This document shows, in pieces, positions 12,424 to 64,000 of a stretch of DNA of 64,000 nucleotides (position 1 is the first letter of the stretch; each line of letters starts with the position of its first letter). The stretch comes from an uncultured Gammaproteobacteria bacterium (lineage in GTDB: Bacteria; Patescibacteriota; Microgenomatia; UBA8517), in the NCBI GenBank assembly GCA_964617045.1, contig CAZTVZ010000001.1:24521-88520 (forward strand). Direction: 5' to 3'. The position numbers and the translations under genes are program-made. Below the pieces are notes generated by a model that did no database searches, was not told the DNA's origin, and worked only from the letters and a program-made list of their open reading frames with translations.

Positions 12424-12441
12424 AATTCGTTATACTTAAAT

Positions 12442-27096: not shown

Positions 27097-27101
27097 TAAT
27101 G

Positions 27102-27186: not shown

Positions 27187-27273
27187 AAATATTCAATCTC
27201 TAATTTTACATTTTTTGGCCTGATTTGACAAAGCGTGAAAATATCTCTAATTTCTAATTAATACAGTAGGGAG

Positions 27274-27648
27274 GTGATTAGATTGAAAAAACTAAAAAAT
27301 ATATTAATTTACACGATACATAATTCAATATTTTTGTATTTTTCTTACATTTTCTTTCCGTCAAAATTTGTTCTTGGTAATGCAAAATTGTCATTTTGGG
27401 CGGCCGTATTCGTATCGGGATTTGTCTGGACATTAATCTTAAAAAGACTTCTTCTTACCATTCAAACAAGAAGTCGTTTTGTCAGATTTGTCTTAAGCTG
27501 GATATTTAACTTTGTTGCCTTATGGATAGTTGCCAGAATAGCCCCTTATTCGGGATTTGGCGTTGTTAAATTTACCTGGTTAATTGGTCTTGCCTTTATA
27601 GCAAATATTGTTCAACAAAACTTTTACGAAGAAAACGTAGGAAAGTGA
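27274..27648 (+). CDS. Small multi-TM membrane protein (hypothetical)
   Basis: GTG start preceded by AGGGAGG Shine-Dalgarno. 124 aa, 3-4 TM. Confidence 0.4.
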   Translation: MIRLKKLKNILIYTIHNSIFLYFSYIFFPSKFVLGNAKLSFWAAVFVSGFVWTLILKRLLLTIQTRSRFVRFVLSWIFNFVALWIVARIAPYSGFGVVKFTWLIGLAFIANIVQQNFYEENVGK

Positions 27649-27717
27649 GCCTGGAAGGATTCGAACCTTCAACCTCTTCCTTAAGAGGGAATTGCTCTAC
27701 CGTTGAGCTACAGGCCC
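27646..27717 (-). tRNA. tRNA-Lys (CTT)
   Basis: Cloverleaf. Anticodon loop CTCTTAA with U33/A37. One A.G mismatch at pair 27:43. Confidence 0.7.
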
Positions 27718-30372: not shown

Positions 30373-30462
30373 GCCGAGGTGCTGAAATTGGTAGACAGGC
30401 AGGTTTCAGGAACCTGTGCTCCTTATACGAGCGTGAGGGTTCAAGTCCCTCCCTCGGCACCA
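30373..30462 (+). tRNA. tRNA-Leu (CAG), CCA encoded
   Basis: Long variable arm. Anticodon loop TTCAGGA. Confidence 0.85.
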
Positions 30463-30472
30463 AAGCGTATTC

Positions 30473-30554
30473 GCGGGGATGGCGAAATTGGTAGACGCGC
30501 AGTCTTGAGGAGGCTGTGGAGAAATCCTTGGAGGTTCAAGTCCTCTTCCCCGCA
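30473..30554 (+). tRNA. tRNA-Leu (GAG)
   Basis: Long variable arm. Anticodon loop TTGAGGA. Confidence 0.8.
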
Positions 30555-30571
30555 CAAAGTCGTGTATAATT

Positions 30572-30648
30572 GGATGCTTAGCTCAGCTGGTTAGAGCACT
30601 TCGTTTACATCGAAGGGGTCGGGGGTTCGAATCCCTCAGCATCCACCA
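30572..30648 (+). tRNA. tRNA-Val (TAC), CCA encoded
   Basis: Anticodon loop TTTACAT. T-loop TTCGAAT. Confidence 0.9.
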
Positions 30649-30651
30649 TAT

Positions 30652-30724
30652 GCCGAGATAGCCAAGGTGGTCACGGCGGGCGCCTGAAGAGCGTCAGATG
30701 TGTGTTCGACTCACACTCTCGGCA
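30652..30724 (+). tRNA. tRNA-Phe (GAA)
   Basis: Anticodon loop CTGAAGA. Acceptor GCCGAGA/TCTCGGC. Confidence 0.7.
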
Positions 30725-30736
30725 CAAAGCGAAGAT

Positions 30737-30811
30737 GCGGGAATAGCTCAGTGGTAGAGCGTCTCCTTGCCAAGGAGAAGGCCGCGGGTTCAAGTCCCGT
30801 TTCCCGCTCCA
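30737..30811 (+). tRNA. tRNA-Gly (GCC), CCA encoded
   Basis: Anticodon loop TTGCCAA. Canonical D and T arms. Confidence 0.9.
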
Positions 30812-30812
30812 A

Positions 30813-30884
30813 GCCCCCATAGCTCAACGGATAGAGCGCGCCCCTTCTAAGGGTGAAATGAAAGTTCGATTCTTTCTGGGGGCA
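30813..30884 (+). tRNA. tRNA-Arg (TCT)
   Basis: Anticodon loop CTTCTAA. T-arm GAAAG/TTCGATT/CTTTC. Confidence 0.85.
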
Positions 30885-37231: not shown

Positions 37232-37305
37232 GGACGCTTAGCTCAGTTGGCTAGAGCGCTTTCTTGACGTGAAAGAGGTCGGGGGTTCAAGTCCCTCAGC
37301 GTCCA
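37232..37305 (+). tRNA. tRNA-Val (GAC)
   Basis: Anticodon loop TTGACGT. Preceded by TATAAT at 37215-37220. Confidence 0.9.
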
Positions 37306-37311
37306 CATATC

Positions 37312-37384
37312 GGGCTCGTAGCTCAATGGCTAGAGCACCTGGCTGGCAGTCAGGGGGTTAGGGGTTCGACTCCCCTCGAGTCCA
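37312..37384 (+). tRNA. tRNA-Ala (GGC)
   Basis: Anticodon loop CTGGCAG. G3:U70 identity pair in the acceptor stem. Confidence 0.9.
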
Positions 37385-43886: not shown

Positions 43887-46445
43887 TTAAGGAGTGGGGG
43901 TAGGAGTTGGTGTAATATCCCATGCTACGTTAACACCAATTCTAATCATACTTTCAGCCTCATGGTTATCTTTATCCCATGCTTTTACTTTTAACTGATG
44001 TGCTCCATCACTAACCCCAGAAAAACTATGTTCAAAAGGTGGTCCGTCAAAACTTCTAACTTTACTATTGTCCAAATACAATTCGACTTTTGTTACATCT
44101 GATGTCGAATCTGCAAAAAACTTGGCTGTGAAATTATTGCCGAGGTTTGATGTCTGATCTGTCGGATTGGAAAAACCGGTGTTTAAGGGATTTTGAGTAC
44201 CACAATATTCGCTTGGAGGCTTATACCTGGAATCGGATTGGGTATTAATCCAATTCAGTATTCCTTCCTGCCATCTGTTTGGCTTACCCGCACCTGCCGT
44301 AGGATCTTCCTCTTTAAAGACAAAATATTCTTTCTCTTCATAGTCACCTCTGTTGATATCTGCAGGTGTGGCTAGTTTTCCGTCTTGTTTACAAACCTTG
44401 AGCTTTACGTGCACAGGATCGTTACCCGGCTCTGTGCCTTGAATAAACTTTTCAGTTCTTGCGGCAAACCCGTCGTGCGCTCGATATCCGGATACGGAAT
44501 CAACAGAAGCAGTTATTATCCTTCCTGGTGTTTCAAATCCAATGTTTGGTTTACCTGATAATGCCTCAACGGTTATTCTTCTCCAGATAGGGGATGCTCC
44601 CGAGATACCGGAGGCAACTGATTTCATCGGAGAGTTGTCGTTGTTTCCAACCCAAACTCCAACAACAATCTGTGTGTTTCCACCTATTGCCCAGTTATCT
44701 CTGCGGTCATTGGTTGTACCGGTTTTAACACCCACCGTTCTTCCGGGAATATTAAGGAGTGAATTGGGTCCGAAGACTGTTTCTCTGGCTTTATTATCAG
44801 AGAGAATGTCGGCCATTAAATAAGCTTGTTCTTCAGTTAGAACTCTCTTTTTCTTTTCTGGTTTAACTTCTTCAAGTACTTTTCCGTCGGCATCTTCGAC
44901 CTTAAGTATCGCTGTGGGTTCAATCCGATAACCTTTGTTAAAGAATGCCGCATATGCAGCTGTTATCTCGGACAGCTTAACCTCACCACCACCCAGCGTT
45001 AACGACAACCCTACACGGCTTAACGTTTCCTGTGTTGGAGGTAGAGAATTTATACCAAGATCGTATGCAGTTTGAAGGGTATCCTTTATTCCTACAAGAG
45101 CGAGCATTTTAACAGCAGGTATGTTTAGAGAATTGCCCAATGCATATCTTAATTGAACCGGACCCCTGTATTTCCCGTCGTAATTAACTGGTTTGTAATC
45201 CGGTTGGCCCGCACCTCCGGGGAAGACAGTCTCGACATCCATAATTAAAGTCGATGGTGTGTATCCTTCTTTAAGTGCCGTTACATATGTAATTGGCTTA
45301 AAAGACGATCCGGGCTGTCTTAATGATTGAGTTACATTTACTTGCCCATCGTAATCATCGGCGGCAAAGTTTTTGGATCCAACCATTGCAAGAATTTCTC
45401 CTGTTTGAGGGTCGTATGCAATTGCTGCACCATTTGTAATATTTTGAGATTCGACTTTGGCAATTTCTTCTGAAACTATAGATTGTGCTTTTTCCTGCAA
45501 TTCCAAATCGAGAGTTGTTGTTACTTTTAAACCTCCTTGTTCTATCGCTGCTTCTCCGTACCTTTCCTCAAGTATTCCTTGTACATATTGGACAAAATGT
45601 GGTGCTTTGAAAGAAGCTCCTTTTGGTTGAAAAACAACCGTATCCAATTCACTTTTTGCCTGTTCTTCCTGTTCTTTCGTTATATAGTCATCCTCACGCA
45701 TTCTTCTTAAGACCTCTTGAGTTCTTCCGATATATGCCTTTGGATTACTGGAATAGGGAGAATAATAGGAGGGTCTTTGAGGCATTCCCGCAAGTATGGC
45801 CGACTCAACAAGTGTCAGATCTTTTGCACTTTTTCCAAAATAGGTTTCGGCTGCAGTTTCAACACCCCATGCCGTTCCTCCATAGGGAGCTTCGTTTAGG
45901 TACATTTGCAGTATTTCGTCTTTGGTATATTTTCTTTCTATTTGGACTGCCAAAATGAATTCTTTTGCTTTTCTTATCAATGATCGTTCGGATGTAAGCA
46001 GAACATTTTTAACAAGTTGCTGGGTAAGCGTTGATCCACCCTGAGCTCTTCCCGCAGTAAAAAGTCGGGTGAATCCACGAATTATTCCCAGTGGATCAAA
46101 ACCTTGATGTGAATAGAAATTTTTATCTTCTATCGCAATCGTTGCTTGTCTCAAATAAACGGGTATTTCTGTAAGTGGTATTGCAGTTCTTCTTTGGTCG
46201 ATAAAAATGTCGTATAAGACTTTTCCGTTACGATCAAGGATCTTGGTGGAAAAACCCTCTCTTCTAACTACATTGTCCGGAGTGGGAAGGTTAAAAGACA
46301 TTAAAGGAACAACAACAAATGAAGCGATAATTAGTACGATTACTCCGATAAAGCCGTACTTTGCTAATTTGAATATGAGTTGACTATTCTTAAATCCCGG
46401 TCTTCGTGCGATTATCCTTCGTCTTCTGTATTTATCCCTCCACAT
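43887..46445 (-). CDS. Class A penicillin-binding protein (PBP1A: GT51 transglycosylase + transpeptidase) with C-terminal beta-rich extension and PT repeat
   Basis: N-terminal TM. GT51 motifs (ATIAIEDKNFYSHQGFD; RAQGGSTLTQQ). Transpeptidase SxxK, SxN, KTG motifs. Confidence 0.9.
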   Translation of the reverse strand: MWRDKYRRRRIIARRPGFKNSQLIFKLAKYGFIGVIVLIIASFVVVPLMSFNLPTPDNVVRREGFSTKILDRNGKVLYDIFIDQRRTAIPLTEIPVYLRQATIAIEDKNFYSHQGFDPLGIIRGFTRLFTAGRAQGGSTLTQQLVKNVLLTSERSLIRKAKEFILAVQIERKYTKDEILQMYLNEAPYGGTAWGVETAAETYFGKSAKDLTLVESAILAGMPQRPSYYSPYSSNPKAYIGRTQEVLRRMREDDYITKEQEEQAKSELDTVVFQPKGASFKAPHFVQYVQGILEERYGEAAIEQGGLKVTTTLDLELQEKAQSIVSEEIAKVESQNITNGAAIAYDPQTGEILAMVGSKNFAADDYDGQVNVTQSLRQPGSSFKPITYVTALKEGYTPSTLIMDVETVFPGGAGQPDYKPVNYDGKYRGPVQLRYALGNSLNIPAVKMLALVGIKDTLQTAYDLGINSLPPTQETLSRVGLSLTLGGGEVKLSEITAAYAAFFNKGYRIEPTAILKVEDADGKVLEEVKPEKKKRVLTEEQAYLMADILSDNKARETVFGPNSLLNIPGRTVGVKTGTTNDRRDNWAIGGNTQIVVGVWVGNNDNSPMKSVASGISGASPIWRRITVEALSGKPNIGFETPGRIITASVDSVSGYRAHDGFAARTEKFIQGTEPGNDPVHVKLKVCKQDGKLATPADINRGDYEEKEYFVFKEEDPTAGAGKPNRWQEGILNWINTQSDSRYKPPSEYCGTQNPLNTGFSNPTDQTSNLGNNFTAKFFADSTSDVTKVELYLDNSKVRSFDGPPFEHSFSGVSDGAHQLKVKAWDKDNHEAESMIRIGVNVAWDITPTPTPTP

Positions 46446-51547: not shown

Positions 51548-51777
51548 CAGATTTAATCAAGTACATCATTAAAAACATCACTGGATCGGATGATTTCGAG
51601 GTTGTTGAAAACGAAATTGGTGAAGGAAGATTGGAATATGTAGTCAAAGTACCCAAAGAATTAATGGGTATAGTAATCGGGAAGGGTGGCAGCATAGTCA
51701 AATCAATAAGAAATCTTGTTAAAGTTAAGGCTACAATAGAAAAGAAATCCGTAAATATCTTCGTTGAAGAACGTTAA
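51544..51777 (+). CDS. khpA: KH-domain RNA-binding protein (KhpA/YlqC-like)
   Basis: VIGKGGSIVKSIRNL matches the KH GxxG loop. ATGA overlap with rpsP. Confidence 0.8.
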   Translation: MTDLIKYIIKNITGSDDFEVVENEIGEGRLEYVVKVPKELMGIVIGKGGSIVKSIRNLVKVKATIEKKSVNIFVEER

Positions 51778-52454
51778 TTAAAAGGATCCTGTCTTATTCC
51801 TGGCTGTTGAGGTGTCAAATTCACTTGAATTGGTGTTCTTAACAGCAATATTTTTGCCAGAGAATCTTTTTCTGCAGCCGTTAAATCTTTCAGAGGGTCG
51901 TTTATCGGTGGTAGCTTGGTGGGATAAGGACCGAAATATGTTCTGACAACGACATCCGCTCTCGTTAAACCGGTTGACTGCGAAAACTTTGCTTTTTCAA
52001 TATTCGAGACAGGGGATACGTTTTCAAAGGATTTCAAATAATCTAGAAGTGTAAGCATGGGACCATCTACGGTAAAAGTAATGTCGACACTGTTTACTGA
52101 ACCCTGTAAAGCTTCCGTTCCGCCTTTTAAATCGGTAATTGTCAAGCCTTTTTCCAATGCCAACATTTTTATTTGCGATATCATGGAAAAACCGGAGTAT
52201 CTTTCCGGCATTGCGAATGTAATTGCATTGGCATATTTATCCATTTCTCCCGAAAGATCGGATAGTATTCGTTCTTTTTCCTTCAAGACATTTTCAATTT
52301 TTTGATTTCTTTCAAGCTCGTCTTTTTGTTCGGTTATTTTTCCGAATCCAACCTTAACTGCAACCGTAAACACGACGGTAATAAGAAGAATCATACCAAT
52401 AGGCATTAAAAGAGCTTTTATGTTTGGTGAACTGATATTTAAATTTGTTTTCAT
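51774..52454 (-). CDS. pilO: Type IV pilus assembly protein PilO-like (bitopic)
   Basis: One TM, coiled coil, periplasmic-type domain. Downstream of pilM-pilN. Confidence 0.55.
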   Translation of the reverse strand: MKTNLNISSPNIKALLMPIGMILLITVVFTVAVKVGFGKITEQKDELERNQKIENVLKEKERILSDLSGEMDKYANAITFAMPERYSGFSMISQIKMLALEKGLTITDLKGGTEALQGSVNSVDITFTVDGPMLTLLDYLKSFENVSPVSNIEKAKFSQSTGLTRADVVVRTYFGPYPTKLPPINDPLKDLTAAEKDSLAKILLLRTPIQVNLTPQQPGIRQDPFN

Positions 52455-52993
52455 TTCTTTGTTACAGTCCCGTTGGAAAATTTGACACTAACAATGTATC
52501 CGACACTAGAATTAAAACTAAAACTCAACAAATCGATTCTTTTATATTCCGTAATAGTTGCCACAGTAGACATAAGTTTTACCAAACTTAATGAATTATT
52601 GGCAAGATAGGTCATCTCAATCGACTCTTTTCCCAGAATGGATTCCGTAACTACAATGTCCGGAGGAATAATTGTTGTAATATCGTATAGGGACGCAATT
52701 TCTTTCTCCACGTTTTGTTTCTTTTCAATTTCTGCAATTTTTGCCAATCTGTCTTTAACCAATATCAAGCTTTGTTCTGTTTGCTCCAATGCTTTGATAT
52801 TGCCTTTTAAGGCCTCCTGGGCTTCCTGAGATTTTTTCAAGGCGATTGAATTGAAGGAAAAATAAGCAACCAATCCTATTAGGGATACAACAAGAATCAT
52901 TGCCAACCCTGTTGCTGCCGATCGCAAATATCCAGATATTTTCTGTATACGAGGATCGGGAGTTAGGTCTTTGGGGAGTAGGTTAATACCCAT
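52451..52993 (-). CDS. pilN: Type IV pilus assembly protein PilN
   Basis: N-terminal INLLP motif, one TM, coiled coil. Confidence 0.7.
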   Translation of the reverse strand: MGINLLPKDLTPDPRIQKISGYLRSAATGLAMILVVSLIGLVAYFSFNSIALKKSQEAQEALKGNIKALEQTEQSLILVKDRLAKIAEIEKKQNVEKEIASLYDITTIIPPDIVVTESILGKESIEMTYLANNSLSLVKLMSTVATITEYKRIDLLSFSFNSSVGYIVSVKFSNGTVTKK

Positions 52994-52999
52994 TGCAGT

Positions 53000-54016
53000 T
53001 TATGCTCCTCTCAAAGCCAATCCAACGGCAATAGAATATAATGGCGCATACGGAGCGATTGTTTTTAGAGCCTGTTGATCAACACTTATTCTGGAGAATG
53101 GATTTCCGATTATTACTTCAATCCCTATTGCTTTGGAAATTAGAGGAAGTGCTTGAGGCATTCCGGAAGTGCCGCCGGATAAGATGATAGTTTTGGGCAT
53201 ATCACCTTTTTCTTCGGACTGATAAAAATGAATGGCTTTTTTGATTTCGTCTATAACAATATTAAATACCGGATCCAGTGCGCCCTTTATCTTTCCTTCC
53301 AATTGAGCCCCTTCCAATCCGTAAGTCCTTTTGTATTCTTCAGCTTGCTGCAATTCTATCCCGAGTGTTTGAGCAACAGCTCTCGTAAATGCCTCACCTG
53401 CAGTAGGGATACTTCTCGAGAAAGACAATTGCCCATTTTTGGCAATGGCGATATCGGTTGACTTGGCACCAAAATCGGCAATTAAAACCGTTTGATTAAT
53501 AGGTGCAAGACCTCTTGTCAAAGACATTAATTCCGTTTCAACACCGACAACATTAAGTCCTGCCAGCTGAACAGCTTTAACATATGTTTCAACTAATTTT
53601 CTGGGTGCGGCAACGAGTAGAACCAAGACTTCCGGAGGAGTAATGTTTTGCCTTCGTTCAATTATCTGATGTTGAACGATAGCTTCGTTGATTGGAATTG
53701 GAACATATTGTTCCGCTTCCCATTTTACTGCACTTGCAATTTCTTGGTCTGTTAAGGGAGGGAATTTAATGGTTCTGGTAAAAACCAGCGGTTCAGGTAG
53801 GGAAATAGAGACATCCTTGGAAGATATTCTTGCTTCGGTGTGAAGTTTTTTAATTACTTGCGCTATAGAAGCAAGATCTCTTTCGTCTTTTGCTTGATCA
53901 GGGGGAACTCCTTGATAACCAATAACACCCGAGCCGTTTAATTTCCAAACATTACCGGCAGGGACTAATTCGACAATTTTTATTGTCTTTGATCCGATAT
54001 CTATGCCAACACTCAC
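53000..54016 (-). CDS. pilM: Type IV pilus assembly ATPase-fold protein PilM (actin-like)
   Basis: VGIDIGSKTIKIVEL start, FtsA/actin-like fold motifs, 338 aa. Confidence 0.85.
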   Translation of the reverse strand: MSVGIDIGSKTIKIVELVPAGNVWKLNGSGVIGYQGVPPDQAKDERDLASIAQVIKKLHTEARISSKDVSISLPEPLVFTRTIKFPPLTDQEIASAVKWEAEQYVPIPINEAIVQHQIIERRQNITPPEVLVLLVAAPRKLVETYVKAVQLAGLNVVGVETELMSLTRGLAPINQTVLIADFGAKSTDIAIAKNGQLSFSRSIPTAGEAFTRAVAQTLGIELQQAEEYKRTYGLEGAQLEGKIKGALDPVFNIVIDEIKKAIHFYQSEEKGDMPKTIILSGGTSGMPQALPLISKAIGIEVIIGNPFSRISVDQQALKTIAPYAPLYSIAVGLALRGA

Positions 54017-54930
54017 TTTGTTATACCTCCAAGAGAAAAGATGGCCGAATCAAATACCGAGGGCAATTCACCATAACCTTGAAAAACATCAATCTTCCTG
54101 TTGGATGCACCCGAGATTCCTGTTGATGTAATTTTTACTCCTTGAGAGGGTAGAGTTCCGTTTCCTGAATAGTTTGTAGAAATTCCTGCTGTATGGGTTT
54201 CTGTGGTGTTATAAAGCATTTTAATTTTTAAAAACTGTAATCCGTTCTGGGTGGAATATACTCCGGATCCAATATTCATAGTAGATAAATCAAATGTTTT
54301 TTGGAACGCATAACGTTCACCTGTTGATAAATCACATGTGCCTGAATCGGGAGCGGAAAACCCATTCGAAGCCCTTCTCGTTTCGTTTGGGTCAATTGCG
54401 GCTCTGGCAATTCTTGCAGTACCGATACTACCGGGTGTATTTAAATAATAGACAGATGCTTCAATAGCAGGAGTAGTATCTGTATTACCCGCAGTTCCTT
54501 CTTTCCCCCAGCAAATTTTAATTTGATTCCCGGTGAAACAAGGTCTTTCCGCACTGCAAATCAAGTCGCCGTCATCATCGTGGGCAACAAACCAAAAAGT
54601 AATTGATTCTCCCGAAAAAATTCCAATCGGATTCCCAAATTCGTAATCGTTGGTGTTTGCAACTGCAATTGATGTTGAAAAAGATGCGTTATCGGAATAT
54701 TCGGAATTGGCAATAATGCTTCCAATATTTCCAGAAATTAATGCTTCTTCAACTCCTGCTTCGGCAGCGGAAAAGGCACGTAATGCTTCTTCTTCTTTTG
54801 TTGAAACACTTACATCGGTAATTGATCTGGATAAAATGGAAAGCACAACCGTCAAAACAACTGCCATAGAAAGAAGAACCAGAAGCAATGCTTGACCACT
54901 CTGTCCAACATTTTTTGGCAGATTTTTCAT
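54013..54930 (-). CDS. PilX-N-domain-like minor pilus component
   Basis: N-terminus GQSGQALLLVLLSMAVVLTVVLS resembles the PilX_N hydrophobic segment. Large variable C-terminal domain. Confidence 0.5.
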   Translation of the reverse strand: MKNLPKNVGQSGQALLLVLLSMAVVLTVVLSILSRSITDVSVSTKEEEALRAFSAAEAGVEEALISGNIGSIIANSEYSDNASFSTSIAVANTNDYEFGNPIGIFSGESITFWFVAHDDDGDLICSAERPCFTGNQIKICWGKEGTAGNTDTTPAIEASVYYLNTPGSIGTARIARAAIDPNETRRASNGFSAPDSGTCDLSTGERYAFQKTFDLSTMNIGSGVYSTQNGLQFLKIKMLYNTTETHTAGISTNYSGNGTLPSQGVKITSTGISGASNRKIDVFQGYGELPSVFDSAIFSLGGITK

Positions 54931-54972
54931 AACAATTCAGTTTAGCAATGTAACCTTATCAGGTCAATTATG

Positions 54973-55485
54973 TTAGTAAGATCTTAATAGTATCTTTGTA
55001 CTCGTTGAGACGACAGCATTATCAATATCCCCCGAATTTGTCTCACTTGCCGTCAGGTCGATAATTACGGATGGGGGAACGACCCCTGCTTCGGGTATGC
55101 AGGTGAACGAACAGGAATTTATTTTTACATCGGTTCCCGTCAATCTTGCCGATCCGGATGCAACATAGCTTTCGTCCGTTCCTGTTCCCACACACGAGAA
55201 AGAAGAAGCAAGGCCTCCATTCGCAATATAATCAATTCTGGTGGGATCAATATTTGGACAAGGCGATACCTTGTCTGCATTTCTTATATTCCTTTCCATA
55301 ATCGCAATTGCGTAATCCAAATTCTCCCTTACTTTAACAACATCATCGCTTTTGTTTGATCCTCTTAAGGTAAGAATTGTAATTCTGCTAATCAAAACAC
55401 CTAATACGGCAAAAACGGCAACAACAACCAATATTTCGATAAAGGAAATCCCTTTTATTTCTTTCATCTTTGTAAATCTCTCCAA
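54973..55485 (-). CDS. Minor (pseudo)pilin with prepilin-type N-terminus
   Basis: KG|ISFIEILVVVAVFAVLG class III signal. Confidence 0.6.
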   Translation of the reverse strand: MERFTKMKEIKGISFIEILVVVAVFAVLGVLISRITILTLRGSNKSDDVVKVRENLDYAIAIMERNIRNADKVSPCPNIDPTRIDYIANGGLASSFSCVGTGTDESYVASGSARLTGTDVKINSCSFTCIPEAGVVPPSVIIDLTASETNSGDIDNAVVSTSTKILLRSY

Positions 55486-55937
55486 TCGCTGAATCGGGTT
55501 GTCGAACTAACCTGATGTTCTCCCTGGCTATCTACCCAGTACACTTTTACAAAAGCATCAACATATTGCTTTGGAACCCCCGAAACGTCAATTGTACCTG
55601 CTGTAAATACTACCTCACGATAAAAAAAAGTATCCGGAATAAACTCGTTATCCGAGCAATTTGGTTTGGCATTTGAAATGGTCCAATCAAGTTCTGTCAT
55701 ACACCAGCTTGGAGTTGCAGAGGCAACGGCATAAAAATCATTCCAATTAATATCTCTTTCGCTTCTTAACCATTCCATTGTCTGCTGGGCGTATCTTGTT
55801 GCAACAGTATTGTTTCTCGAATATGAGCTGTTTCTAATCGATGTCGAAGCAAGGGCTACAATTGCAACAATAATTAAAGTTGATACTGCCAGGGCAACGA
55901 CAATTTCAAAAAGAGATTGGCCTTTTTCGTTTTTCAA
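55464..55937 (-). CDS. Minor pilin with prepilin-type N-terminus
   Basis: G|QSLFEIVVALAV with E at +5. Confidence 0.6.
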   Translation of the reverse strand: MKNEKGQSLFEIVVALAVSTLIIVAIVALASTSIRNSSYSRNNTVATRYAQQTMEWLRSERDINWNDFYAVASATPSWCMTELDWTISNAKPNCSDNEFIPDTFFYREVVFTAGTIDVSGVPKQYVDAFVKVYWVDSQGEHQVSSTTRFSDWRDLQR

Positions 55938-56419
55938 TTAATTTCTCCTCCTTGAGTAACAGTTACAGAAATTATTTTACCGGTCGATATTTGTGTAACG
56001 GATACAATTTCCGACGGATTGGGAATATTAGTTCCGTGTCCCAGAGGCTTAAATATGATTGGATTAATTCCAGTAGAAATAATTAAATCATTTGAATTTA
56101 ACTCTTTTGTTTTTACTTCAACGCTCCCTCCCGTACACAATGCATTAATCCTGTAGGTATTGGAATTAATAACAAGAAATTCATAACCGTTAAGTAAATT
56201 TGACCCTTGGCAGTTTGGACTATCAGGCTTTTCTCCGGCAAGAGCTTTGCTTTGTGCCAATCTTAGATCACTTTTGATAAATCTAGCGGTCGAAGTAAGA
56301 AGTTGTCTTCTTGAAAATTCTCTAAAACCAACATATCCAACACCGAAAATCAATCCGATTATGGTTAATCCGACAAGTATTTCGATAAGGGTATAACCGT
56401 TGTTGTTTTTTTCATTCAT
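55934..56419 (-). CDS. Minor pilin, GspH/FimT-like
   Basis: NG|YTLIEILVGLTIIGLI, then the GspH-like segment ARFIKSDLRLAQSKA. Confidence 0.6.
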   Translation of the reverse strand: MNEKNNNGYTLIEILVGLTIIGLIFGVGYVGFREFSRRQLLTSTARFIKSDLRLAQSKALAGEKPDSPNCQGSNLLNGYEFLVINSNTYRINALCTGGSVEVKTKELNSNDLIISTGINPIIFKPLGHGTNIPNPSEIVSVTQISTGKIISVTVTQGGEIN

Positions 56420-56886
56420 TAGGGGCTGGTTACTTTATAATTACACTCAACGTCTGTCCCACAACTATCTATTCCACCATCTCCGTCACAATCGACACCT
56501 GCAAGCTCATCTTCCAAGGCAGTACAAAGAGAGTAGGACGATCCCGTTTCGGAGTAGTATCTGTAAAATCTCCCAGTAGTTGAAATTGGTTCCGAAGGGC
56601 TTACAAAATATTGATTGGAAGACGAACAGCTGGTGGGTGTATCGTCACCGTTAAGTGTTGCCGGCCAATTTGTTGTGTATGTTTCCGCCGGATAATTGCC
56701 ACAGTCGGAATGATATATCTCAAGTCCGGACCTTATCAGCTCAAGATCTGCTTTTCTTCGGGCGTCACGAGAGTCTTTCCTGGCTTCCTGAAGTCCAAAC
56801 ACGGATACAGCCATCAATATTCCGACTATCGAGATAACAACAAGAAGTTCGATTAATGTAAAACCTTTTCTCATGGCAGGGGACAA
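56419..56886 (-). CDS. Type IV pilin paralog 1
   Basis: KG|FTLIELLVVISIVG, conserved RDARRKADL...YP module, Cys-rich variable C-terminus. Confidence 0.75.
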   Translation of the reverse strand: MSPAMRKGFTLIELLVVISIVGILMAVSVFGLQEARKDSRDARRKADLELIRSGLEIYHSDCGNYPAETYTTNWPATLNGDDTPTSCSSSNQYFVSPSEPISTTGRFYRYYSETGSSYSLCTALEDELAGVDCDGDGGIDSCGTDVECNYKVTSP

Positions 56887-57338
56887 GTGCCTCCCGATTG
56901 TTCCTCGGATACATATCCTTCTCCGACTTTTCCATTACTGCAAATTATGTAATGCCTGTCAGAAGTGTTTTCTATTAATGCCCACAAAACATACATTGTT
57001 GCCCCCGGATCTCCGGAATTGTCGACATTAGATTGATAGTTGTAGACAAAAGCATTGTTGGAAACATATTTTACATCTTCAGGGCAACCACTTTGACCCA
57101 AGTCGGTACAGAGAGTGGAGGACGCTCTTGCTGTTACGTTTCTTTTTGGATAAAGTCCTTCGTTTTTATTGGCATAAACCTCAAGCATGTTTTGATATTG
57201 CCTAAGATCCGACTTTCTTTTTGAATCATTTGCCTGTTTTTGTGATCCTCCGAAAGAAACCAGAGACACTGCAGCAAGCACACCAATAATCGATATTACA
57301 ACCAACAATTCTACAAGTGTAAATCCTTTCTTATTCAT
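56871..57338 (-). CDS. Type IV pilin paralog 2
   Basis: KG|FTLVELLVVISIIG, KRKSDL...YP module. Confidence 0.75.
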   Translation of the reverse strand: MNKKGFTLVELLVVISIIGVLAAVSLVSFGGSQKQANDSKRKSDLRQYQNMLEVYANKNEGLYPKRNVTARASSTLCTDLGQSGCPEDVKYVSNNAFVYNYQSNVDNSGDPGATMYVLWALIENTSDRHYIICSNGKVGEGYVSEEQSGGTCPLP

Positions 57339-57805
57339 GGTCTTACTTGATACATAACATCATTTGGACAATCTGTATTTTCAACACCTTTTTCATCGCT
57401 TGGATTTTCCAGACATGCAGTCAACGTATAGCTATCAGCATTGGGATCATAAACATACGAATAGGATTGGTCTGGAAGTGGATCGGCAGGAAGCATGGTC
57501 ATTATTACACGGTTATCGGATGACCACACTTGACCCCATTCGCAATCTGCAAAACCTTGTTGTACACGACCACAACCGTGGATCTTTCCATCGGCAGATG
57601 CCGTCGGATAATAGTTATGATCGTTATAAAAAAGTCTGAGTGCTGTTTGAATGTTCCTTAAATCAGATTTTCTCTGTGCATCTCTTGCACGTTCCCTGGC
57701 CGAATTAAAATTGGCAAGAAGAAGTGCAGAAATTATACCGATAATGGATATAGCAACAAGAAGTTCAATTAGAGTGAATCCTTTTTTCGTGGCAGAATTG
57801 AACAT
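57335..57805 (-). CDS. Type IV pilin paralog 3
   Basis: KG|FTLIELLVAISIIG, RDAQRKSDL...YP module. Confidence 0.75.
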   Translation of the reverse strand: MFNSATKKGFTLIELLVAISIIGIISALLLANFNSARERARDAQRKSDLRNIQTALRLFYNDHNYYPTASADGKIHGCGRVQQGFADCEWGQVWSSDNRVIMTMLPADPLPDQSYSYVYDPNADSYTLTACLENPSDEKGVENTDCPNDVMYQVRP

Positions 57806-57816
57806 AATTTATTATA

Positions 57817-58350
57817 TCAGTCAAAAACTTCAAATACAGTTGTATTGGTCGAAGTTAATCCGTAATTACAGATATTTGTCCCGCCACAAGTAACAACAAC
57901 AGGGTTTATGCAATTGGGGGTGCCACCTTGAACACCGTTCGTTCCTTTAATACAATTTTTATCTTGTTGATTTTCCAGTCGGGCGAAAAGTTTATATTTA
58001 CTCCTCGCAGTGTTTACATAATATTGATATATCGTTGATTCCGAAGGGTCAGATGGAAGAGTTTTGAAATACACCGTTTGACCATCGGTAAAATCGTCAT
58101 AACCCCAGTCACAGTTTCCTTCTGTGGTAGAAGGACATCCAGCAATCATTGTCCCGGAAGCACCAGGATATTGCCTGTGATCCTGATAGTACAATTCAAG
58201 TGCGTTTACAATCTGTTTTAAATCGCTTTTTCTCTGAGCATCCCTTCCTTTCATTTGAGAAGATCGAAAAGCTCCTACTCCAACAACGGCAAGTATTCCA
58301 AGAATTGCAATTACTACAAGTAGCTCAATTAAAGTAAAACCTTTTTTCAT
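57817..58350 (-). CDS. Type IV pilin paralog 4
   Basis: KG|FTLIELLVVIAILG, RDAQRKSDL...YP module. Confidence 0.75.
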   Translation of the reverse strand: MKKGFTLIELLVVIAILGILAVVGVGAFRSSQMKGRDAQRKSDLKQIVNALELYYQDHRQYPGASGTMIAGCPSTTEGNCDWGYDDFTDGQTVYFKTLPSDPSESTIYQYYVNTARSKYKLFARLENQQDKNCIKGTNGVQGGTPNCINPVVVTCGGTNICNYGLTSTNTTVFEVFD

Positions 58351-58964
58351 GGCATCAATTTATTTTCGTACTCTTTCAGGGACATATCAAGCGGAGTGCC
58401 TCTCGAAGCTTTTCCAAAATTGCAGATATCACTACCGCAGGATATGTTTCTTTGCTCGATTTTAGTAGAATAATCTAGAACACTTTTCCCTTCAAAGGAT
58501 CCGAATATTTGATAATGGTCTCCTGTAGAAAAATATCGATAACTTCTTCCCTTCGAAGATTCCATGTCTTGAGGAACATGGGAAAGATATGGTTCTTTTC
58601 CTTCGACGGTAAAATCTTCGAAAACACTTTCTCCCCATATGCACGGAGCAAATGTTTGAAACATCTTTTCCCTGTTTTCCAATGGCCTTCCTGCAAGTAA
58701 ATATTTCATGTCTTCCCTTTCCCAACCTTCAGGTAGGCATGCAATAATTTCTCCTTCATCGGAAGCTAAAGGGTACCTGTCAAAATCATTGTAAAAAGCT
58801 TCAAGTGCCGATTGAACAGCGGTTAGATCGTTTCTTCTTTGGATATCCCTTGCTTTTTCAAGACTAACCAGGTAGTTCCAGTAGGAATAAAAATAAATAC
58901 CTATAAGGATAATGACAAGTCCGACAATTTCTTTTTTGTATTCTTTGAGATTGATCATTCCCAT
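58347..58964 (-). CDS. Pilin-like paralog lacking the prepilin peptidase cleavage motif
   Basis: Has the conserved ARDIQRRNDL...FYNDFDRYP pilin module behind an uncleavable-looking TM (no G-F-T-L-I-E). Confidence 0.5.
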   Translation of the reverse strand: MGMINLKEYKKEIVGLVIILIGIYFYSYWNYLVSLEKARDIQRRNDLTAVQSALEAFYNDFDRYPLASDEGEIIACLPEGWEREDMKYLLAGRPLENREKMFQTFAPCIWGESVFEDFTVEGKEPYLSHVPQDMESSKGRSYRYFSTGDHYQIFGSFEGKSVLDYSTKIEQRNISCGSDICNFGKASRGTPLDMSLKEYENKLMP

Positions 58965-59590
58965 GGTTCACATTCATTTATTGGTTCACCGCTCGAAGGA
59001 GCCGTACACTGAGAGTAGCATGTCTGAGATAGAAAGTTGGGGTCACATTCAGGACCGGGCCTGCTAACATCCCAACCGATAGGAACACAAGAACCGGCTC
59101 GACAACCATAAAAGTCGGATGATGTTATGTTTGCATGAGGGGCATTGGGACTGGAGGTGTAATAATTAAATGCCCCATCGGGACCCAGACCACCCATTAT
59201 GTCCGTGTCAGCGTCATTCTCCAGAGTGGCATAAAGCTTAAACCAATCAGGACAAGTATCGGCATCCGGTATTTCATAAAGATAATCGGATCCTGTTCTG
59301 GGATCACAGGGAATTTTATCAAGGTATGGCCTTAGTCCAGTTCCCGGATTGCAATAGAGAAGATCTCTTGGGGGATAACAATCGTGATCTTTTTCGTATT
59401 CCTCAACGGCTGTTCTGATTTTATGAAGATCAGCTTTTCTTCTTGCGTCAAACCCTTTCCAGATTTGGGTTCGATATGCCCATATGGCAACAACAATCAA
59501 AAGCGCCATAACAACGACAACTATCATTACCTCCATCAAAGTAAAGCCCAATATTCTTTTTTTACTTATTGTGCTTTTTATATTATTCAT
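58955..59590 (-). CDS. Type IV pilin paralog 6 (Cys-rich C-terminal domain)
   Basis: LG|FTLMEVMIVVVV, FDARRKADL...YPP module, 12 Cys in the C-terminal half. Confidence 0.7.
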   Translation of the reverse strand: MNNIKSTISKKRILGFTLMEVMIVVVVMALLIVVAIWAYRTQIWKGFDARRKADLHKIRTAVEEYEKDHDCYPPRDLLYCNPGTGLRPYLDKIPCDPRTGSDYLYEIPDADTCPDWFKLYATLENDADTDIMGGLGPDGAFNYYTSSPNAPHANITSSDFYGCRAGSCVPIGWDVSRPGPECDPNFLSQTCYSQCTAPSSGEPINECEPWE

Positions 59591-60378
59591 AGCGGCATTA
59601 TTAATCTTAACAAAGTATTGCCCCATAGAAAAACCAAGATGAAAGCTGCGACCAAAAATGGCCCAAACGGTATTTCATCTTTCCTTTTGGCCTTTTTCAA
59701 CATCAAGAGAACTATTGCAACGATAGCTCCCAAAATGAACGATAGAAATATCCAGAGTGGGGTATACGGATAACCCAACAATAATCCTATGGGAACCGCC
59801 AGTTTAACGTCTCCCAAACCCATACCCCGTCCTTTTGTTAGTAAATTAATGGATAACAAGAAAAATGACGCTGCGAATGCGCTAACAATATGCAAATAGA
59901 TATTGGAATAATCAAGAATTATAAAAGTTGTAATAATTAGAGTGGATAGAAAAACAATTGTTTCGTCTGGGATAATCTTATTTTCCCAATCAATAATCAA
60001 AATAAGATAACAAAGGAAAAATACAATTAGGGTGAATATTAGGCCCATAAAACCCAATTCGTTTCGAAACAAAGACAGCAGTGCACTGTCGGAGAAATAG
60101 AAAGCCAAATAAGTAGCAACGAAAATAAATCCCGAGAAAACCTCAATCAAAGGATACCTGCAAGAAATCTTTTCTCTGCAAAAGCGACATTTGCCCCACA
60201 GAAATAAATATGAAAGAAGTGGAATATTGTCGTACCACTTTAGTTTTTTGCGGCACTTAGTACATTCGGATCTTTCGGTTTTCCAATTTATACCTCTGGG
60301 AATCCGATAACTAAGTGCCGTGGCAAAGGAACCAAAAATTAATCCTGCCAAAAACAATACCAATAACCAAGTTATCAC
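59587..60378 (-). CDS. pilD: Prepilin peptidase (A24 family)
   Basis: N-terminal CxxC...CxxC zinc motif (CTKCRKK...CRFCRE), 8 TM, catalytic Asp regions. Confidence 0.9.
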   Translation of the reverse strand: MITWLLVLFLAGLIFGSFATALSYRIPRGINWKTERSECTKCRKKLKWYDNIPLLSYLFLWGKCRFCREKISCRYPLIEVFSGFIFVATYLAFYFSDSALLSLFRNELGFMGLIFTLIVFFLCYLILIIDWENKIIPDETIVFLSTLIITTFIILDYSNIYLHIVSAFAASFFLLSINLLTKGRGMGLGDVKLAVPIGLLLGYPYTPLWIFLSFILGAIVAIVLLMLKKAKRKDEIPFGPFLVAAFILVFLWGNTLLRLIMPL

Positions 60379-60379
60379 T

Positions 60380-60979
60380 TTATTCGGGTAAACAGACTAC
60401 ACATGATGTAGCCATATCAGCATATGTTCTAGTCGCACAGTCAGCAACGTTTTCCGTAATTTCGCTATCAGCGATACTTATGGATCTGCTTGCTTTTTTC
60501 TGTTCAGACTTGGATTTTGGTACATAACAAGCGTATACGGATGCAGCAACACCTGCTGTTCCGTCACTCTTTCCAATGTAAAGTAAGTCGTTCCATGCGG
60601 AAGTCGATCTTACAAAATCTCTTTTCGTAAACTCCGTTTTGAGTTCGTTATTGGTAATAAGTAAACCAGGGTCGTTTGGACAACCATTTTGACCCGGTGC
60701 TACATCACATATTCCAATTGTCGTGTCCCTAGCGTCGGTGAAATTAACAGCGTCTTCGTCATCAGTAACCCCGGCTTCATACCAGGGGAAATGTCCGATT
60801 GCCACGTAATATCTATCTATTGCCGCTAAAAGTTGTGATGCGTCCGATTTCATTCTTGAATCCCTTGAACGATTTGCTTGTTCAAGCGGATTAATCGCTG
60901 CTAAAACCGCTGTGGCCAAAACTCCGAGAAGTGCGATAACAATCAAAAGTTCAACTAACGTAAAACCTTTTTTATTCAT
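60380..60979 (-). CDS. pilA: Type IV pilin (candidate major pilin, adjacent to pilC)
   Basis: KG|FTLVELLIVIALLGVLA, strong AAGGAGG Shine-Dalgarno upstream, 199 aa. Confidence 0.8.
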   Translation of the reverse strand: MNKKGFTLVELLIVIALLGVLATAVLAAINPLEQANRSRDSRMKSDASQLLAAIDRYYVAIGHFPWYEAGVTDDEDAVNFTDARDTTIGICDVAPGQNGCPNDPGLLITNNELKTEFTKRDFVRSTSAWNDLLYIGKSDGTAGVAASVYACYVPKSKSEQKKASRSISIADSEITENVADCATRTYADMATSCVVCLPE

Positions 60980-61066
60980 TTTAGGCAGAATTAATTTTGT
61001 TCACCTCCTTTAAATATTAAAACAACTGTAATCAGTATGAAAAATCCCCACTGCTATGTCAATAGC

Positions 61067-62272
61067 TTAGAAACTACTGGTCAAATTATAGATCGGTAAA
61101 ATAATTGCGATAACCAAAAATCCGACACCAAGTCCCAACAAAATCATTACCAACGGTTCAACGGCAGAGGTTAAAGTTTTTACTTTTTCTTCACTCTCTA
61201 TCTCAAAAACATGGCTTACCTTGGAAAGAACTTCTTCCATTTTTCCGGTTTCTTCTCCAACCGCAATCATTTGGGAAAGGATAAACGGAAAAGCTTCGGG
61301 GTGTTTTGAAAACGAATAAGCAATGGGGAATCCTTTTTCTACTTGTTTTGCAGCATCTTTTAAAGCCTCGGATATTACAACGTTATCGGTAACACCGGAT
61401 GTAATTGTTAAACTTTCAAGGATAGAGACTCCAGCACCGGTCATCAAGCTCATTGTTCTTGTAAGTTCCGTAAGCATTACTTCTTTTTGCATCGGCCCGA
61501 TAATAGGAATCTTAAAATAGAGCTCGTCGGTTTTTCTTCTTCCCAAAGGAGTCTTTCTGTATTGAATAAACGCAAACACACCGATTACTCCAATCATCAA
61601 AACAATGGGCCAGAACTTTACTGCGGCATTCGAAATCGTAATTAATATTTTTGTTGCGACAGGAAGGTTGGCATTAAATTCGGTATATAAAGACATTAAT
61701 CGGGGGATAACAAAGATCATCATTACAATCGCAACTGCAACCATACCAATAACGATAATTGCAGGATAAATAAGGGCTCCTTTTACTTTTCCTGAAAATT
61801 CCTGCTGTTTTTCGAGATTGTCCGCAAGTCTATTTAAAACTTGATCGATAACACCTCCCAATTCTCCTGATTTAACAAGAGCAATGTAGGTTGGGGAGAA
61901 TACTTTAGGATGTTTTTGCAAAGCAACCGAAAGAGACTGTCCGCCTTCAACATCGTTAAGAATTTGAGAAACAACTTTTTGCATACCTCCTTTTGTTTGT
62001 GATCTGAGAATAAGAAGTGACTCGGTAATAGGAAGTCCGGCATTAACCATTGTTGCCATTTGTCTTGTAAAAGTAGTAACGTCTCTCCCGGTGATTTTAT
62101 TTCTTAGATTGGTAATTATTGACGCTATGCTCTCTGTCGCGGGGGATACGGAGATTACAACAAGTCCTTTGTCTCTCACCAGTTTTGCGGCAACACTAAT
62201 AGAGGACGCCTCAACTTCACCGGTTACCAACTTTCCCGTTTTATCTTTTGCTTTGTAAAAAAACCTTTTCAT
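61067..62272 (-). CDS. pilC: Type IV pilus platform protein PilC (GspF family)
   Basis: Two GspF repeats, three TM, 401 aa. Confidence 0.9.
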   Translation of the reverse strand: MKRFFYKAKDKTGKLVTGEVEASSISVAAKLVRDKGLVVISVSPATESIASIITNLRNKITGRDVTTFTRQMATMVNAGLPITESLLILRSQTKGGMQKVVSQILNDVEGGQSLSVALQKHPKVFSPTYIALVKSGELGGVIDQVLNRLADNLEKQQEFSGKVKGALIYPAIIVIGMVAVAIVMMIFVIPRLMSLYTEFNANLPVATKILITISNAAVKFWPIVLMIGVIGVFAFIQYRKTPLGRRKTDELYFKIPIIGPMQKEVMLTELTRTMSLMTGAGVSILESLTITSGVTDNVVISEALKDAAKQVEKGFPIAYSFSKHPEAFPFILSQMIAVGEETGKMEEVLSKVSHVFEIESEEKVKTLTSAVEPLVMILLGLGVGFLVIAIILPIYNLTSSF

Positions 62273-62279
62273 TTAAACG

Positions 62280-63353
62280 TTAGTACATTCCGTCTTGAGG
62301 AGAGCGAACAAGTCTGGTAAGTTGCTCGGGCCTCATTGACCAACTTTGGGCTACATCCAAAGAAATTTTACCGGCCTTTACCAGTGCGGCAAGTGAATTC
62401 TCCAGTGTATACATTCCCACTTCTTGTGAGGTTTGGAGTATTGAATCAATTTGATGAGTTTTTCCTTCTCTGATAGCTGTTCTAATTGCTGTCGTTCCAA
62501 GCATTACTTCGGAGGCAACCATTCTTCCACCTGTAATAGATGGTACAAGTCTTTGCGAGAATACCGCCTCAATAACATTTGACAGTTGAAGTCTTACTTG
62601 TCCTTGTTGTTCTTCCGGAAAAACATCGACAATTCTATCAATTGTTTGTGCAGCCGAATTGGTGTGCAATGTTGCCAAAACCAAATGTCCGGTCTCTGCA
62701 ACGGTGAGCGCAGCGGCTATTGTTTCGTAATCTCTCATCTCTCCAACAAGTACAACATCCGGATCCTCACGCAGGGTTGATCTTAGCGCAACCTGCCAAG
62801 AATGAGTATCGGACTTCATTTCCCTTTGAGAAATAATCGACTTTATCGGTTTAAACATAAATTCTATCGGGTCTTCAATGGTAACAATGTGGGCAGCTCT
62901 GTTGTTGTTTATTTCATTGATCATTGAGGCAAGAGTCGTTGATTTACCATGTCCTGTTGGTCCCGTAACAAGAACAAATCCTTGTTTCAGGTTGGTGAAG
63001 TTGTGAATTATTTTGGGTAATCCCAATGCGTCAACTGCTGGTATTTCCAAGGGAATTCTTCTGAATGCCGCCGCAAGGGTCCCTCTTTGGGTATATGCGT
63101 TAACACGGAATCTTGCTTTTTCGGAAAACGCCAAAGAAAAATCGATTTCCTTGTTAACGGTAAGTCTTTCAAGTTGTTCTGAGGTCAAAGCTTCTTTTAA
63201 AAAGGCGGCAACGGAGTCGGGGGTAAGAACTGCTTCGTTGGGTACAGGCATCAGATTTCCTTCGACTCTAATCGTAGGAGCAATACCTGAAATGACATGC
63301 AAGTCCGATGCATTTCTGTCTACTGTTAATTGTAATAATTCTTTTACTCCCAT
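62280..63353 (-). CDS. pilT: Type IV pilus retraction ATPase PilT
   Basis: Walker A GPTGHGKSTT, Asp box, His box (ATLHTNSAA), AIRE(G)-like motif. 357 aa. Confidence 0.9.
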   Translation of the reverse strand: MGVKELLQLTVDRNASDLHVISGIAPTIRVEGNLMPVPNEAVLTPDSVAAFLKEALTSEQLERLTVNKEIDFSLAFSEKARFRVNAYTQRGTLAAAFRRIPLEIPAVDALGLPKIIHNFTNLKQGFVLVTGPTGHGKSTTLASMINEINNNRAAHIVTIEDPIEFMFKPIKSIISQREMKSDTHSWQVALRSTLREDPDVVLVGEMRDYETIAAALTVAETGHLVLATLHTNSAAQTIDRIVDVFPEEQQGQVRLQLSNVIEAVFSQRLVPSITGGRMVASEVMLGTTAIRTAIREGKTHQIDSILQTSQEVGMYTLENSLAALVKAGKISLDVAQSWSMRPEQLTRLVRSPQDGMY

Positions 63354-64000
63354 TATTCTTGAGCAACTCTCAATATTTCTTCTATTGTAGTTGTTCCCTC
63401 CAATACTTTTAAGTATCCGTCCTGCTTCATTGTTATTAGTCCATCCAACTTGGCTTGCTTTTCTATTTCGCTGGCTGGTGATCGTTGCAAAATAAGATTT
63501 TGTACTTTTTCCGTTACCGGAATAACTTCAAATATTCCGACTCTTCCTTGATAACCGGAATTGCCGCAATCCTGATCACCTTGGCCCTTATACAATTGAA
63601 CTTGCTTGTTTTGGGGATAAAAGTTTCCCAGAACCTGCTTCATGTCTTCCAATATCTTTGGATCGGGATTATATGCAACCTTACATTTGTCGTGAATTTT
63701 TCTGACGACCCTTTGTGCAACAATGGCTGTCATTGAAGAGGCAAGAAGATAAGGTTCCGCACCCATATCCAAAAGTCTGGGCAAGGCACCCGATGCATCG
63801 TTGGTGTGAAGCGTAGAAAAAACCAAATGACCCGTTAGTGATGCTTGAATAGCAAGATCCGCTGTCTCTCGGTCACGAATTTCTCCAACAAGAATAATAT
63901 TGGGATCTTGTCTCAAAAAAGCTCTTAATCCGGAAGCGAATGTAAGTCCCGCGGCAGGATTAACTTGCACCTGGTTTACACCTGGCATCTTATATTCGAC
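63353..64000 (-). CDS. pilB: Type IV pilus extension ATPase PilB/GspE, C-terminal part (5' end beyond the window)
   Basis: GspE C-terminal domain: [32 protein letters not shown], and a tetracysteine-like region. Confidence 0.85.

Follow-up and report, generated by a model that had tools for sequence, protein, structure and literature searches.

Does a row of pilin-like genes that share an N-terminal module but differ in their C-terminal domains encode a repertoire of exchangeable surface proteins or the fixed parts of one machine, and what is to be made of a member that has lost its prepilin cleavage site? This question is raised by a locus in a 64,000-nt stretch of contig CAZTVZ010000001.1 (positions 24,521 to 88,520 of the forward strand), the whole of which we refer to as the window. 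The first-pass annotation, made from the sequence alone, had reported seven consecutive pilin paralogs with hypervariable, Cys-rich C-domains and had suggested a set of alternative tip/adhesin-like or antigenically variable subunits. In bacteria of the Candidate Phyla Radiation (CPR)/Patescibacteria, type IV pili are believed to play a central part in host attachment and DNA uptake, and their machinery is barely characterised. Our comparison with related loci shows that the genes form an ordinary pilin block, which is part of the monoderm-type type IV pilus operon of a Woesebacteria-like member of the CPR/Patescibacteria. At the between-species scale the array is a fixed set of old, individually conserved paralogs in fixed order, and the copy without a cleavage site, here called ODD, founds a conserved family derived from a pilin like its neighbor P1.

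A fixed set of pilins in a conserved order

All seven pilin-like open reading frames (ORFs) are present within 56419-60979, on the minus strand:

60380..60979, minus strand: pilin A, 199 amino acids (aa), 6 Cys; N_methyl match
58955..59626, minus strand: pilin B, 10 Cys; N_methyl match and a sub-threshold GspG match; the start is probably at 59590, giving 211 aa with a 14-aa leader ending LG↓FTLME
58347..58964, minus strand: ODD, a membrane protein of pilin fold whose class III signal is degenerate, with no Gly/Ala at -1
57817..58350, minus strand: pilin P1, 177 aa, 6 Cys, GspG-like head; PF07963 match and PF08334 at 23.4 bits (cutoff 21)
57335..57805, minus strand: pilin P2, 156 aa, 4 Cys; PF07963/TIGR02532 match
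56871..57338, minus strand: pilin P3, 155 aa, 4 Cys; PF07963/TIGR02532 match
56419..56886, minus strand: pilin P4, 6 Cys; PF07963/TIGR02532 match; the start is probably at 56874, giving 151 aa

These genes are not consecutive, as had been stated: the prepilin peptidase gene pilD (59587-60378) lies between the first copy, A, and the second, B. The pilin block also runs on past these coordinates, with four further pilin-like genes (M1-M4) at 54013-56419, and the operon as a whole reads pilB-pilT-pilC-A-pilD-B-ODD-P1-P2-P3-P4-M1-M2-M3-M4-pilM-pilN-pilO.

The class III signal that had been attributed to all seven copies is found in six of them (A, B and P1-P4) and not in ODD. These six have Gly at the end of the leader followed by Phe (KKG↓FTLVE, LG↓FTLME, KKG↓FTLIE twice, KKG↓FTLVE and RKG↓FTLIE, with the arrow at the leader end), and PF07963/TIGR02532 matches them above cutoff in 6/6 cases. 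The conserved alpha1 module (R/N/F-D-x-x-R/M-K/R-x-D...Y/F-P, in alpha1C) is common to all seven, as had been noticed. The ranges given for the C-termini (90-150 aa, 4-12 Cys) hold at their lower ends and shrink at their upper ones, to 89-140 aa after the YP motif and 4-10 Cys per protein. Nor do these domains diverge completely. We cut the proteins after the YP motif, built ortholog alignments of the resulting heads from about 90 loci and compared them profile against profile with hhalign, by which the GspG-like heads of B, ODD and P1-P4 are all homologous to one another (90-99% probability, E-values of 1e-6 to 1e-19), the pair B-P3 being weaker at 46%. The head of A alone is unrelated to the rest, with a probability of <1% against every other head; in A orthologs alpha1 is 65-84% identical, with G14 and the INPLEQ proline. 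Pfam T2SSG alignments reach through the heads of P1, P2 and P4.

For comparison across relatives, 95 loci in total were collected: the surroundings of ODD homologs were combined with the loci returned by single scans of species-representative genomes and of metagenome contigs, the latter scan queried with a 36-sequence alignment (A4). The ORFs of these loci were classified by phmmer against the window proteins. The gene order is kept in about 90 related loci from genomes and metagenomes, as two stable architectures: a short one, pilB-T-C-A-pilD-ODD-P3-P4-M1-M4-pilMNO, and an expanded one, ...pilD-B-ODD-P1-P2-P3-P4-..., to which the window belongs. B, P1 and P2 occur together and in the expanded type only, P3 and P4 occur in both types, and A stands between pilC and pilD in all loci. 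In seven loci (L035, L038, L040, L042, L047, L066 and L080) two tandem copies of A-type, putatively major, pilins are found at that place.

Each position in this order has its own orthologs. In the six relatives whose genes were fully listed, proteins at the same position are 44-80% identical as opposed to 17-42% between positions, and the number of Cys per position is largely kept (A 6, B 10, ODD 4, P2 4, P3 4, P4 6). The heads alone are 36-73% identical between orthologs, compared with 16-34% between paralogs of one genome, whose signal/alpha1 modules are 22-53% identical. Measured against their orthologs, the pilins (40-80% identity) change about as fast as PilD (43-51%) and PilN/PilO (38-45%). 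Nei-Gojobori comparison with the closest relative (L007) gave nonsynonymous divergence (dN) of 0.08-0.36 with saturated synonymous divergence (dS), and dN/dS of at most about 0.17 wherever it was computable; dS was saturated or incalculable for ODD, P3 and P4, and the values are upper-bound style evidence. At the DNA level the copies have only one repeat in common, 62 nt of 66-79% identity in the part coding for the signal/transmembrane segment. Recombination cassettes were considered and ruled out, the shared 62 nt being too diverged for gene conversion and long identical tracts being absent. An identical ODD protein is carried by only two other contigs (L014 and L015), which come from the same population and are 100% identical to the window over 7.8-11.7 kb.

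The model proposed by the first-pass annotation, in which a conserved module carries heads that are swapped or diversified between strains as alternative tip/adhesin or antigenically variable subunits, can draw on the greater divergence of paralog heads relative to the module, on the Cys-rich and surface-exposed nature of these heads, and on the reliance of CPR bacteria on host attachment (PMC6744442, PMC11623550). However, each head has its positional ortholog with its Cys count largely kept, divergence does not exceed that of PilD or PilN/PilO, dN/dS is low, and the DNA lacks the long identical tracts that gene conversion would use. Nor are the copies silent cassettes of the pilE/pilS type, since all of the genes are full-length with signals of their own and are translationally coupled, share only the short repeat, and have orthologously kept heads. 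Because of the positional orthologs, the kept Cys counts, the low dN/dS and the lack of recombination-grade repeats, we read the array as a fixed set; the cross-genome comparison gives no support to 'hypervariable' heads, and a variable repertoire is very improbable and largely refuted at the between-species scale. An orthologously conserved set with two stable architectures removes the attractive but wrong 'antigenic repertoire' reading, and provides a clean parts list of the type IV pilus for this lineage.

The ODD family and its altered signal

That the copy at 58347-58964 lacks the G↓FTLIE motif is borne out. Neither PF07963 nor TIGR02532 matches ODD, and the position equivalent to -1 in the window protein is K or E. 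A mis-called start that would restore a prepilin motif had been named as one way to explain this. The ORF opens directly after an in-frame stop inside the 3' end of gene B, the ODD ATG overlaps the stop codon of B (ATGGGAATGA), and the DNA upstream encodes the end of gene B with no in-frame start available. Comparison with homologs points to the second ATG, at 58958, as the probable start; the protein would then have 203 aa, the length of its closest homolog.

Within the window alone, ODD resembles a pilin with a damaged signal peptide, and it had been suggested that it might be a decaying copy. Its relatives speak against this. A word-indexed search returned 20 clusters of full-length homologs at 40-72% identity, all of which have a non-canonical N-terminus, and in these clusters the C-terminal motif is largely invariant: CNFG, TPLD and a Glu near the C-terminus (consensus CNFGKASRGTPLD.SL.EYE). 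This conserved motif with its helix (CNFGKA..TPLDKS.EEYENEL) is added in ODD. Searched with a profile, 1.84 billion cluster representatives yielded 577 matches at E<=1e-10 and 106 at E<=1e-30, with the same N-terminal pattern in about 125 of the best 150 matches; canonical P1-like pilins enter the list only from about E 1e-27. Its members fall into over 100 clusters when grouped at 50% identity. For ODD, dN relative to L007 is 0.24 with dS saturated. Together with the fixed place of the gene beside pilD and the lack of an upstream start, these results refute both a decaying pseudogene and a start artefact.

ODD directly follows pilD (32 loci) or pilD-B (41 loci) in 73 of the 74 loci where the upstream gene was resolved. 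It is kept in the short operons, which are without B, P1 and P2, and is translationally coupled and co-encoded with pilD and the pilins. The sole locus with another order (L053, 799-3359) reads P3-P4-M1-ODD-P1, and the M1 homolog there has 577 aa with a large extra C-terminal domain.

The signal region was tallied in 117 ODD representatives and in 253 canonical pilins of the same operons, anchored on the RD motif and independent of any alignment. Glu or Asp at +5 was part of the anchor condition for the 117 ODD members, and the ODD counts at +5 below are from a multiple sequence alignment of 134:

Position -1: ODD family F 46, G 17, K 9, P 8, L 6, S 6 (Gly/Ala 19 of 117); canonical pilins G 218, A 35
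Position +1: ODD family F 85 (73%); canonical pilins F 229
Position +2: ODD family T/S 74 (63%); canonical pilins T 251, S 2
Position +3: ODD family K/R 109 (93%); canonical pilins L/I/M/V 253
Position +5: ODD family E 123, D 5 (of 134); canonical pilins E 253

A leader ending in Gly or Ala is thus a property of every canonical pilin counted and not of the ODD family. ODD keeps the exact alpha1 register, with Glu5 and the RD motif spaced by 27 residues as in P1, and it keeps Glu at +5 and usually Phe at +1 and Thr/Ser at +2, while Gly at -1 is exchanged for bulky or charged residues and Leu at +3 for Lys or Arg. Among B orthologs, two of seven (L004 9432-10001 and L007 3-683) have Ala for Gly at -1 (AFTITE, AFTLIE), and +1 is Leu in two others and Ala in one, so that the PilD acting on them probably takes either Gly or Ala at -1 and more than one residue at +1.

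Beyond the signal, ODD has the parts expected of a type IV pilin, in which about 20-25 hydrophobic residues make up alpha1N, often with Glu at +5, and an alpha1 of roughly 50 residues carries an alpha/beta head in a lollipop fold. The AlphaFold model, built from a 20-sequence alignment, is confident, with a mean predicted local distance difference test score of 90.3. In it an N-terminal helix of 56 residues leads into a small alpha/beta head, and a short helix lies at the C-terminus. Foldseek and a PDB profile search (PulG, E 5.5e-4) agree weakly with this fold. Two disulfides are probable in the head. The closest canonical relative is P1, with an hhalign E-value of 1.2e-19 between the two heads. 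No Pfam or NCBIfam model reaches threshold on the ODD family, and sources label its members 'hypothetical' or 'PulG'. It is a widespread, so far unannotated family, and also a natural experiment in which the pilin fold and Glu5 are kept and the cleavage site is lost.

Conservation along the protein is also reversed. In five of six ortholog comparisons the head of ODD (50-71%) is at least as conserved as its N-terminal part (31-64%), the opposite of A and P1-P4, in which the N-terminal part (60-91%) is far above the head (38-73%). This fits an alpha1N that is freed from packing in the filament core. Cleavage by signal peptidase I was considered and rejected, as the hydrophobic stretch of about 20 residues is continuous with alpha1 and the residue at -3 from a conserved Ser/Ala is R, Q, L or K, with no AxA.

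Candidate roles of ODD

The leader of a class III signal 'invariably ends with' Gly or Ala, and Glu5 of one pilin subunit forms a pair with the N-terminal amine of its neighbor (PMC10191384). On this background the sequence data make it reasonably probable that the operon encodes a fixed-set type IV pilus plus ODD as an unprocessed, membrane-retained pilin mimic at the platform or pilus base. The first-pass annotation had already proposed that this copy escapes PilD and stays in the membrane, and the scarcity of Gly/Ala at -1 in its family supports the proposal as an inference. PilD would neither cleave nor methylate ODD, which would sit as a monotopic membrane protein with its basic N-terminus inside and its head outside. 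Its in-register alpha1 and Glu5 would let it contact either the assembly platform or the final subunit at the base of the pilus, as a protein able to dock but not to be extracted; an anchor, a terminator or a platform subunit would follow from such a docking-competent yet non-extractable pilin. If ODD has one of these roles, the machines with which bacteria build type IV filaments would gain a new class of component.

Several points weigh against this reading. The results do not discriminate among the anchor, terminator and platform-subunit roles. Prepilin peptidases can be promiscuous toward non-canonical signals (PMC4471445), and 16% of family members have Gly/Ala at -1, so that some of the family may be cleaved. 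The window ODD and its closest relative have lost even Phe at +1 (E or K there). In two distant members (L012 and L013) the Glu is replaced or shifted, so that docking through Glu5 rests on a family trend and not on an invariant residue. For the filament itself, the naming of A as major pilin draws on position only.

ODD could instead be a minor pilin that is still processed, either by a promiscuous CPR PilD or by cleavage elsewhere, and that enters the filament, for example as a specialised low-abundance subunit. The retained F+1, T/S+2 and E+5 (the last in >90%) and exact alpha1 register would suit such a protein, as would the 19 members with Gly/Ala at -1, the ability of PilD enzymes to handle non-canonical signals (PMC4471445), and the tolerance of Ala at -1 in B orthologs. 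Still, we consider it unlikely, though worth keeping in view: at -1, Phe (39%) is joined by K, P, L, S, I and N with no sign of selection for small residues, when the canonical pilins encoded alongside have Gly/Ala in 253/253. With Lys/Arg at +3 and a polar +4, the hydrophobic core of the filament would have to take up charge, and the alpha1N of ODD is less conserved than its head in five of six comparisons, opposite to A and P1-P4. A more improbable idea is that ODD acts on PilD itself, as an uncleavable pseudosubstrate that binds the peptidase or gates pilin processing. Adjacency to pilD or pilD-B in nearly all resolved loci speaks for this, as does the retention of F+1, T+2 and E+5 while the scissile-site Gly is lost. 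However, adjacency may merely mirror operon order, B intervenes between pilD and ODD in expanded operons, and the most conserved parts are the extracytoplasmic head and the C-terminal motif and helix, which a ligand of a peptidase at the cytoplasmic face would not need.

A more specific form of the membrane-retained mimic, which we put forward as speculative and rather unlikely, would make ODD a dedicated uncleavable 'last subunit'. It would dock by Glu5/alpha1 beneath the growing pilus, with its unprocessed, Lys-rich N-terminus blocking extraction from the membrane, and would stop elongation and fix the filament in place at the membrane or cell wall, by a logic like that of FlaF/FlaG or of the basal pilins of sortase pili. 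Ultrasmall CPR cells would in that way have a pilus anchor built in for static attachment to their hosts.

The operon, its surroundings and known systems

From 51774 to 64000 every long ORF is on the minus strand and the genes are tightly packed, forming one compact type IV pilus operon with a GC content of about 38-40%. Stop and start codons overlap at pilD-B (ATGA), B-ODD (given above) and ODD-P1 (ATGA). No secretin gene (PilQ) was found within the operon. Relatives that bear names in genome collections are mostly Candidatus Woesebacteria metagenome-assembled genomes (MAGs). The genes around the seven pilins are as follows:

63353..64000, minus strand: pilB-like extension ATPase, its 5' end beyond the window; PF00437 T2SSE, E 1e-61 (pilB homologs of relatives have 575-580 aa and an MshEN domain)
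62280..63353, minus strand: pilT-like retraction ATPase; PF00437 T2SSE, E 7e-44; orthologs 74-83% identical
61067..62272, minus strand: pilC platform protein; PF00482 T2SSF, E 5e-60
59587..60378, minus strand: pilD bifunctional prepilin peptidase/N-methylase; PF06750 A24_N_bact (E 6e-30) and PF01478 Peptidase_A24 (E 5e-15); the true start is probably at 60363, as in the 258-aa gene call of contigs identical to the window
55934..56419, minus strand: minor pilin M1, GspH/FimU-like; N_methyl match, weak GspH matches
55464..55937, minus strand: minor pilin M2, PilV/GspI-like; TIGR02523 and TIGR01707, both sub-threshold
54973..55485, minus strand: minor pilin M3, GspJ-like; TIGR01711 sub-threshold, weak N_methyl match
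54013..54930, minus strand: minor pilin M4, PilX/GspK-like, 305 aa; weak PilX_N match; its sequence GQALLLVLLSMAVV has no Glu at +5
53000..54016, minus strand: pilM; PF11104 PilM_2, E 8e-45
52451..52993, minus strand: pilN-like bitopic protein, named from position and synteny; no Pfam match
51774..52454, minus strand: pilO-like protein; weak PilO and T2SSM_b matches, synteny

A is most likely the major pilin, given its position between pilC and pilD and a head fold of its own. From position and family resemblance, B and P1-P4 would be processed, disulfide-stabilised accessory pilins. M1-M4, four successive pilin-like genes with weak matches to GspH, PilV/GspI, GspJ and PilX_N in that order, all below family cutoffs, may on the same grounds be a GspH/I/J/K-like priming or tip set, the counterpart of FimU/PilV/W/X; the last gene of such a set lacks Glu5, as M4 does.

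Other features were observed around the related operons and in the rest of the window. Two MAGs labeled 'uncultured Gammaproteobacteria' (L011, CAZDKH010000006.1, and L013, CAZPLB010000005.1) have the same CPR-type secretin-less operon including ODD, and that label is probably wrong. The pilus operon of L006 is followed directly by AbiEii-family toxin genes (11874-13504), which take the place of M4 and pilMNO there. The GyrB encoded beside the pilus operon of L004 (1-3221) carries an intein (Intein_splicing Pfam match, 1089 aa), compared with 652-655 aa in other relatives. The window has 15 tRNA genes by Rfam scan, with a tight cluster of seven at 30373-30884 (plus strand) and others at positions including 27024-27717 (minus strand) and 37232-37384 (plus strand). 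An 852-aa ORF at 43887-46445 (minus strand) resembles, as judged by sequence, a class A penicillin-binding protein, with a long C-terminal region that ends in (TP)n (...TPTPTPTPTP).

Operons of this kind have been described before. Meheust et al. 2019 (PMC6744442) reported type IV pilus operons in CPR bacteria that encode many pilins, lack PilQ and are associated with disulfide machinery, and saccharibacterial pili have been studied genetically (PMC11623550). Like CPR/monoderm type IVa operons, the window has two ATPases, PilC, PilD and PilM/N/O with no PilQ in the operon, and several co-localised, Cys-rich pilins that resemble pseudopilins of type II secretion systems (T2SS). The fixed 7+4 pilin architecture in short and expanded variants, on the other hand, sets window-type loci apart from these descriptions. 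In Saccharibacteria the pilins are named differently and only PilX2 was noted to have a non-canonical signal (PMC11623550). We found no description of a pilD-adjacent non-canonical pilin such as the ODD family in the literature, the coverage of which was incomplete, so that this is absence of evidence only.

The window proteins resemble GspG/PulG/EpsG (PF08334, TIGR01710) yet stay far below the cutoff of the equivalog model TIGR01710 (88.85 bits), scoring 19-52 bits with P1 best at 52.3 and ODD at 18.8. In contrast to a T2SS, the operon includes PilT and PilM/N/O and is without GspC, GspD and GspL, and disulfides may take the place of the GspG calcium site in the heads. The pilE/pilS loci of Neisseria are similar in having several pilin-related sequences with a conserved N-terminal module and divergent heads. 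They differ from the window, where the genes are complete and expressed-looking, lie in one operon, have positional orthologs across species and show no recombination-grade repeats.

For ODD, the archaeal FlaF/FlaG (ArlF/ArlG) offer a functional analogy: a domain derived from a filament subunit that lacks a class III signal, is monotopic and is encoded in the filament operon (PMC4425475). FlaF lies outside the filament and yet is essential at its base, where it binds the S-layer (PMC4425475). The two are not homologous, FlaF being a beta-sandwich of the archaellin type and ODD an alpha/beta, GspG-like pilin fold, and ODD retains most of the signal motif (F1, T2 and E5), with changes only at -1, +3 and +4. 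By these comparisons the array is a known kind of locus, ordinary for its lineage, and the ODD family is a pilin-derived component with a degenerate, probably uncleavable signal that provides a concrete lead for the biology of CPR type IV pili.

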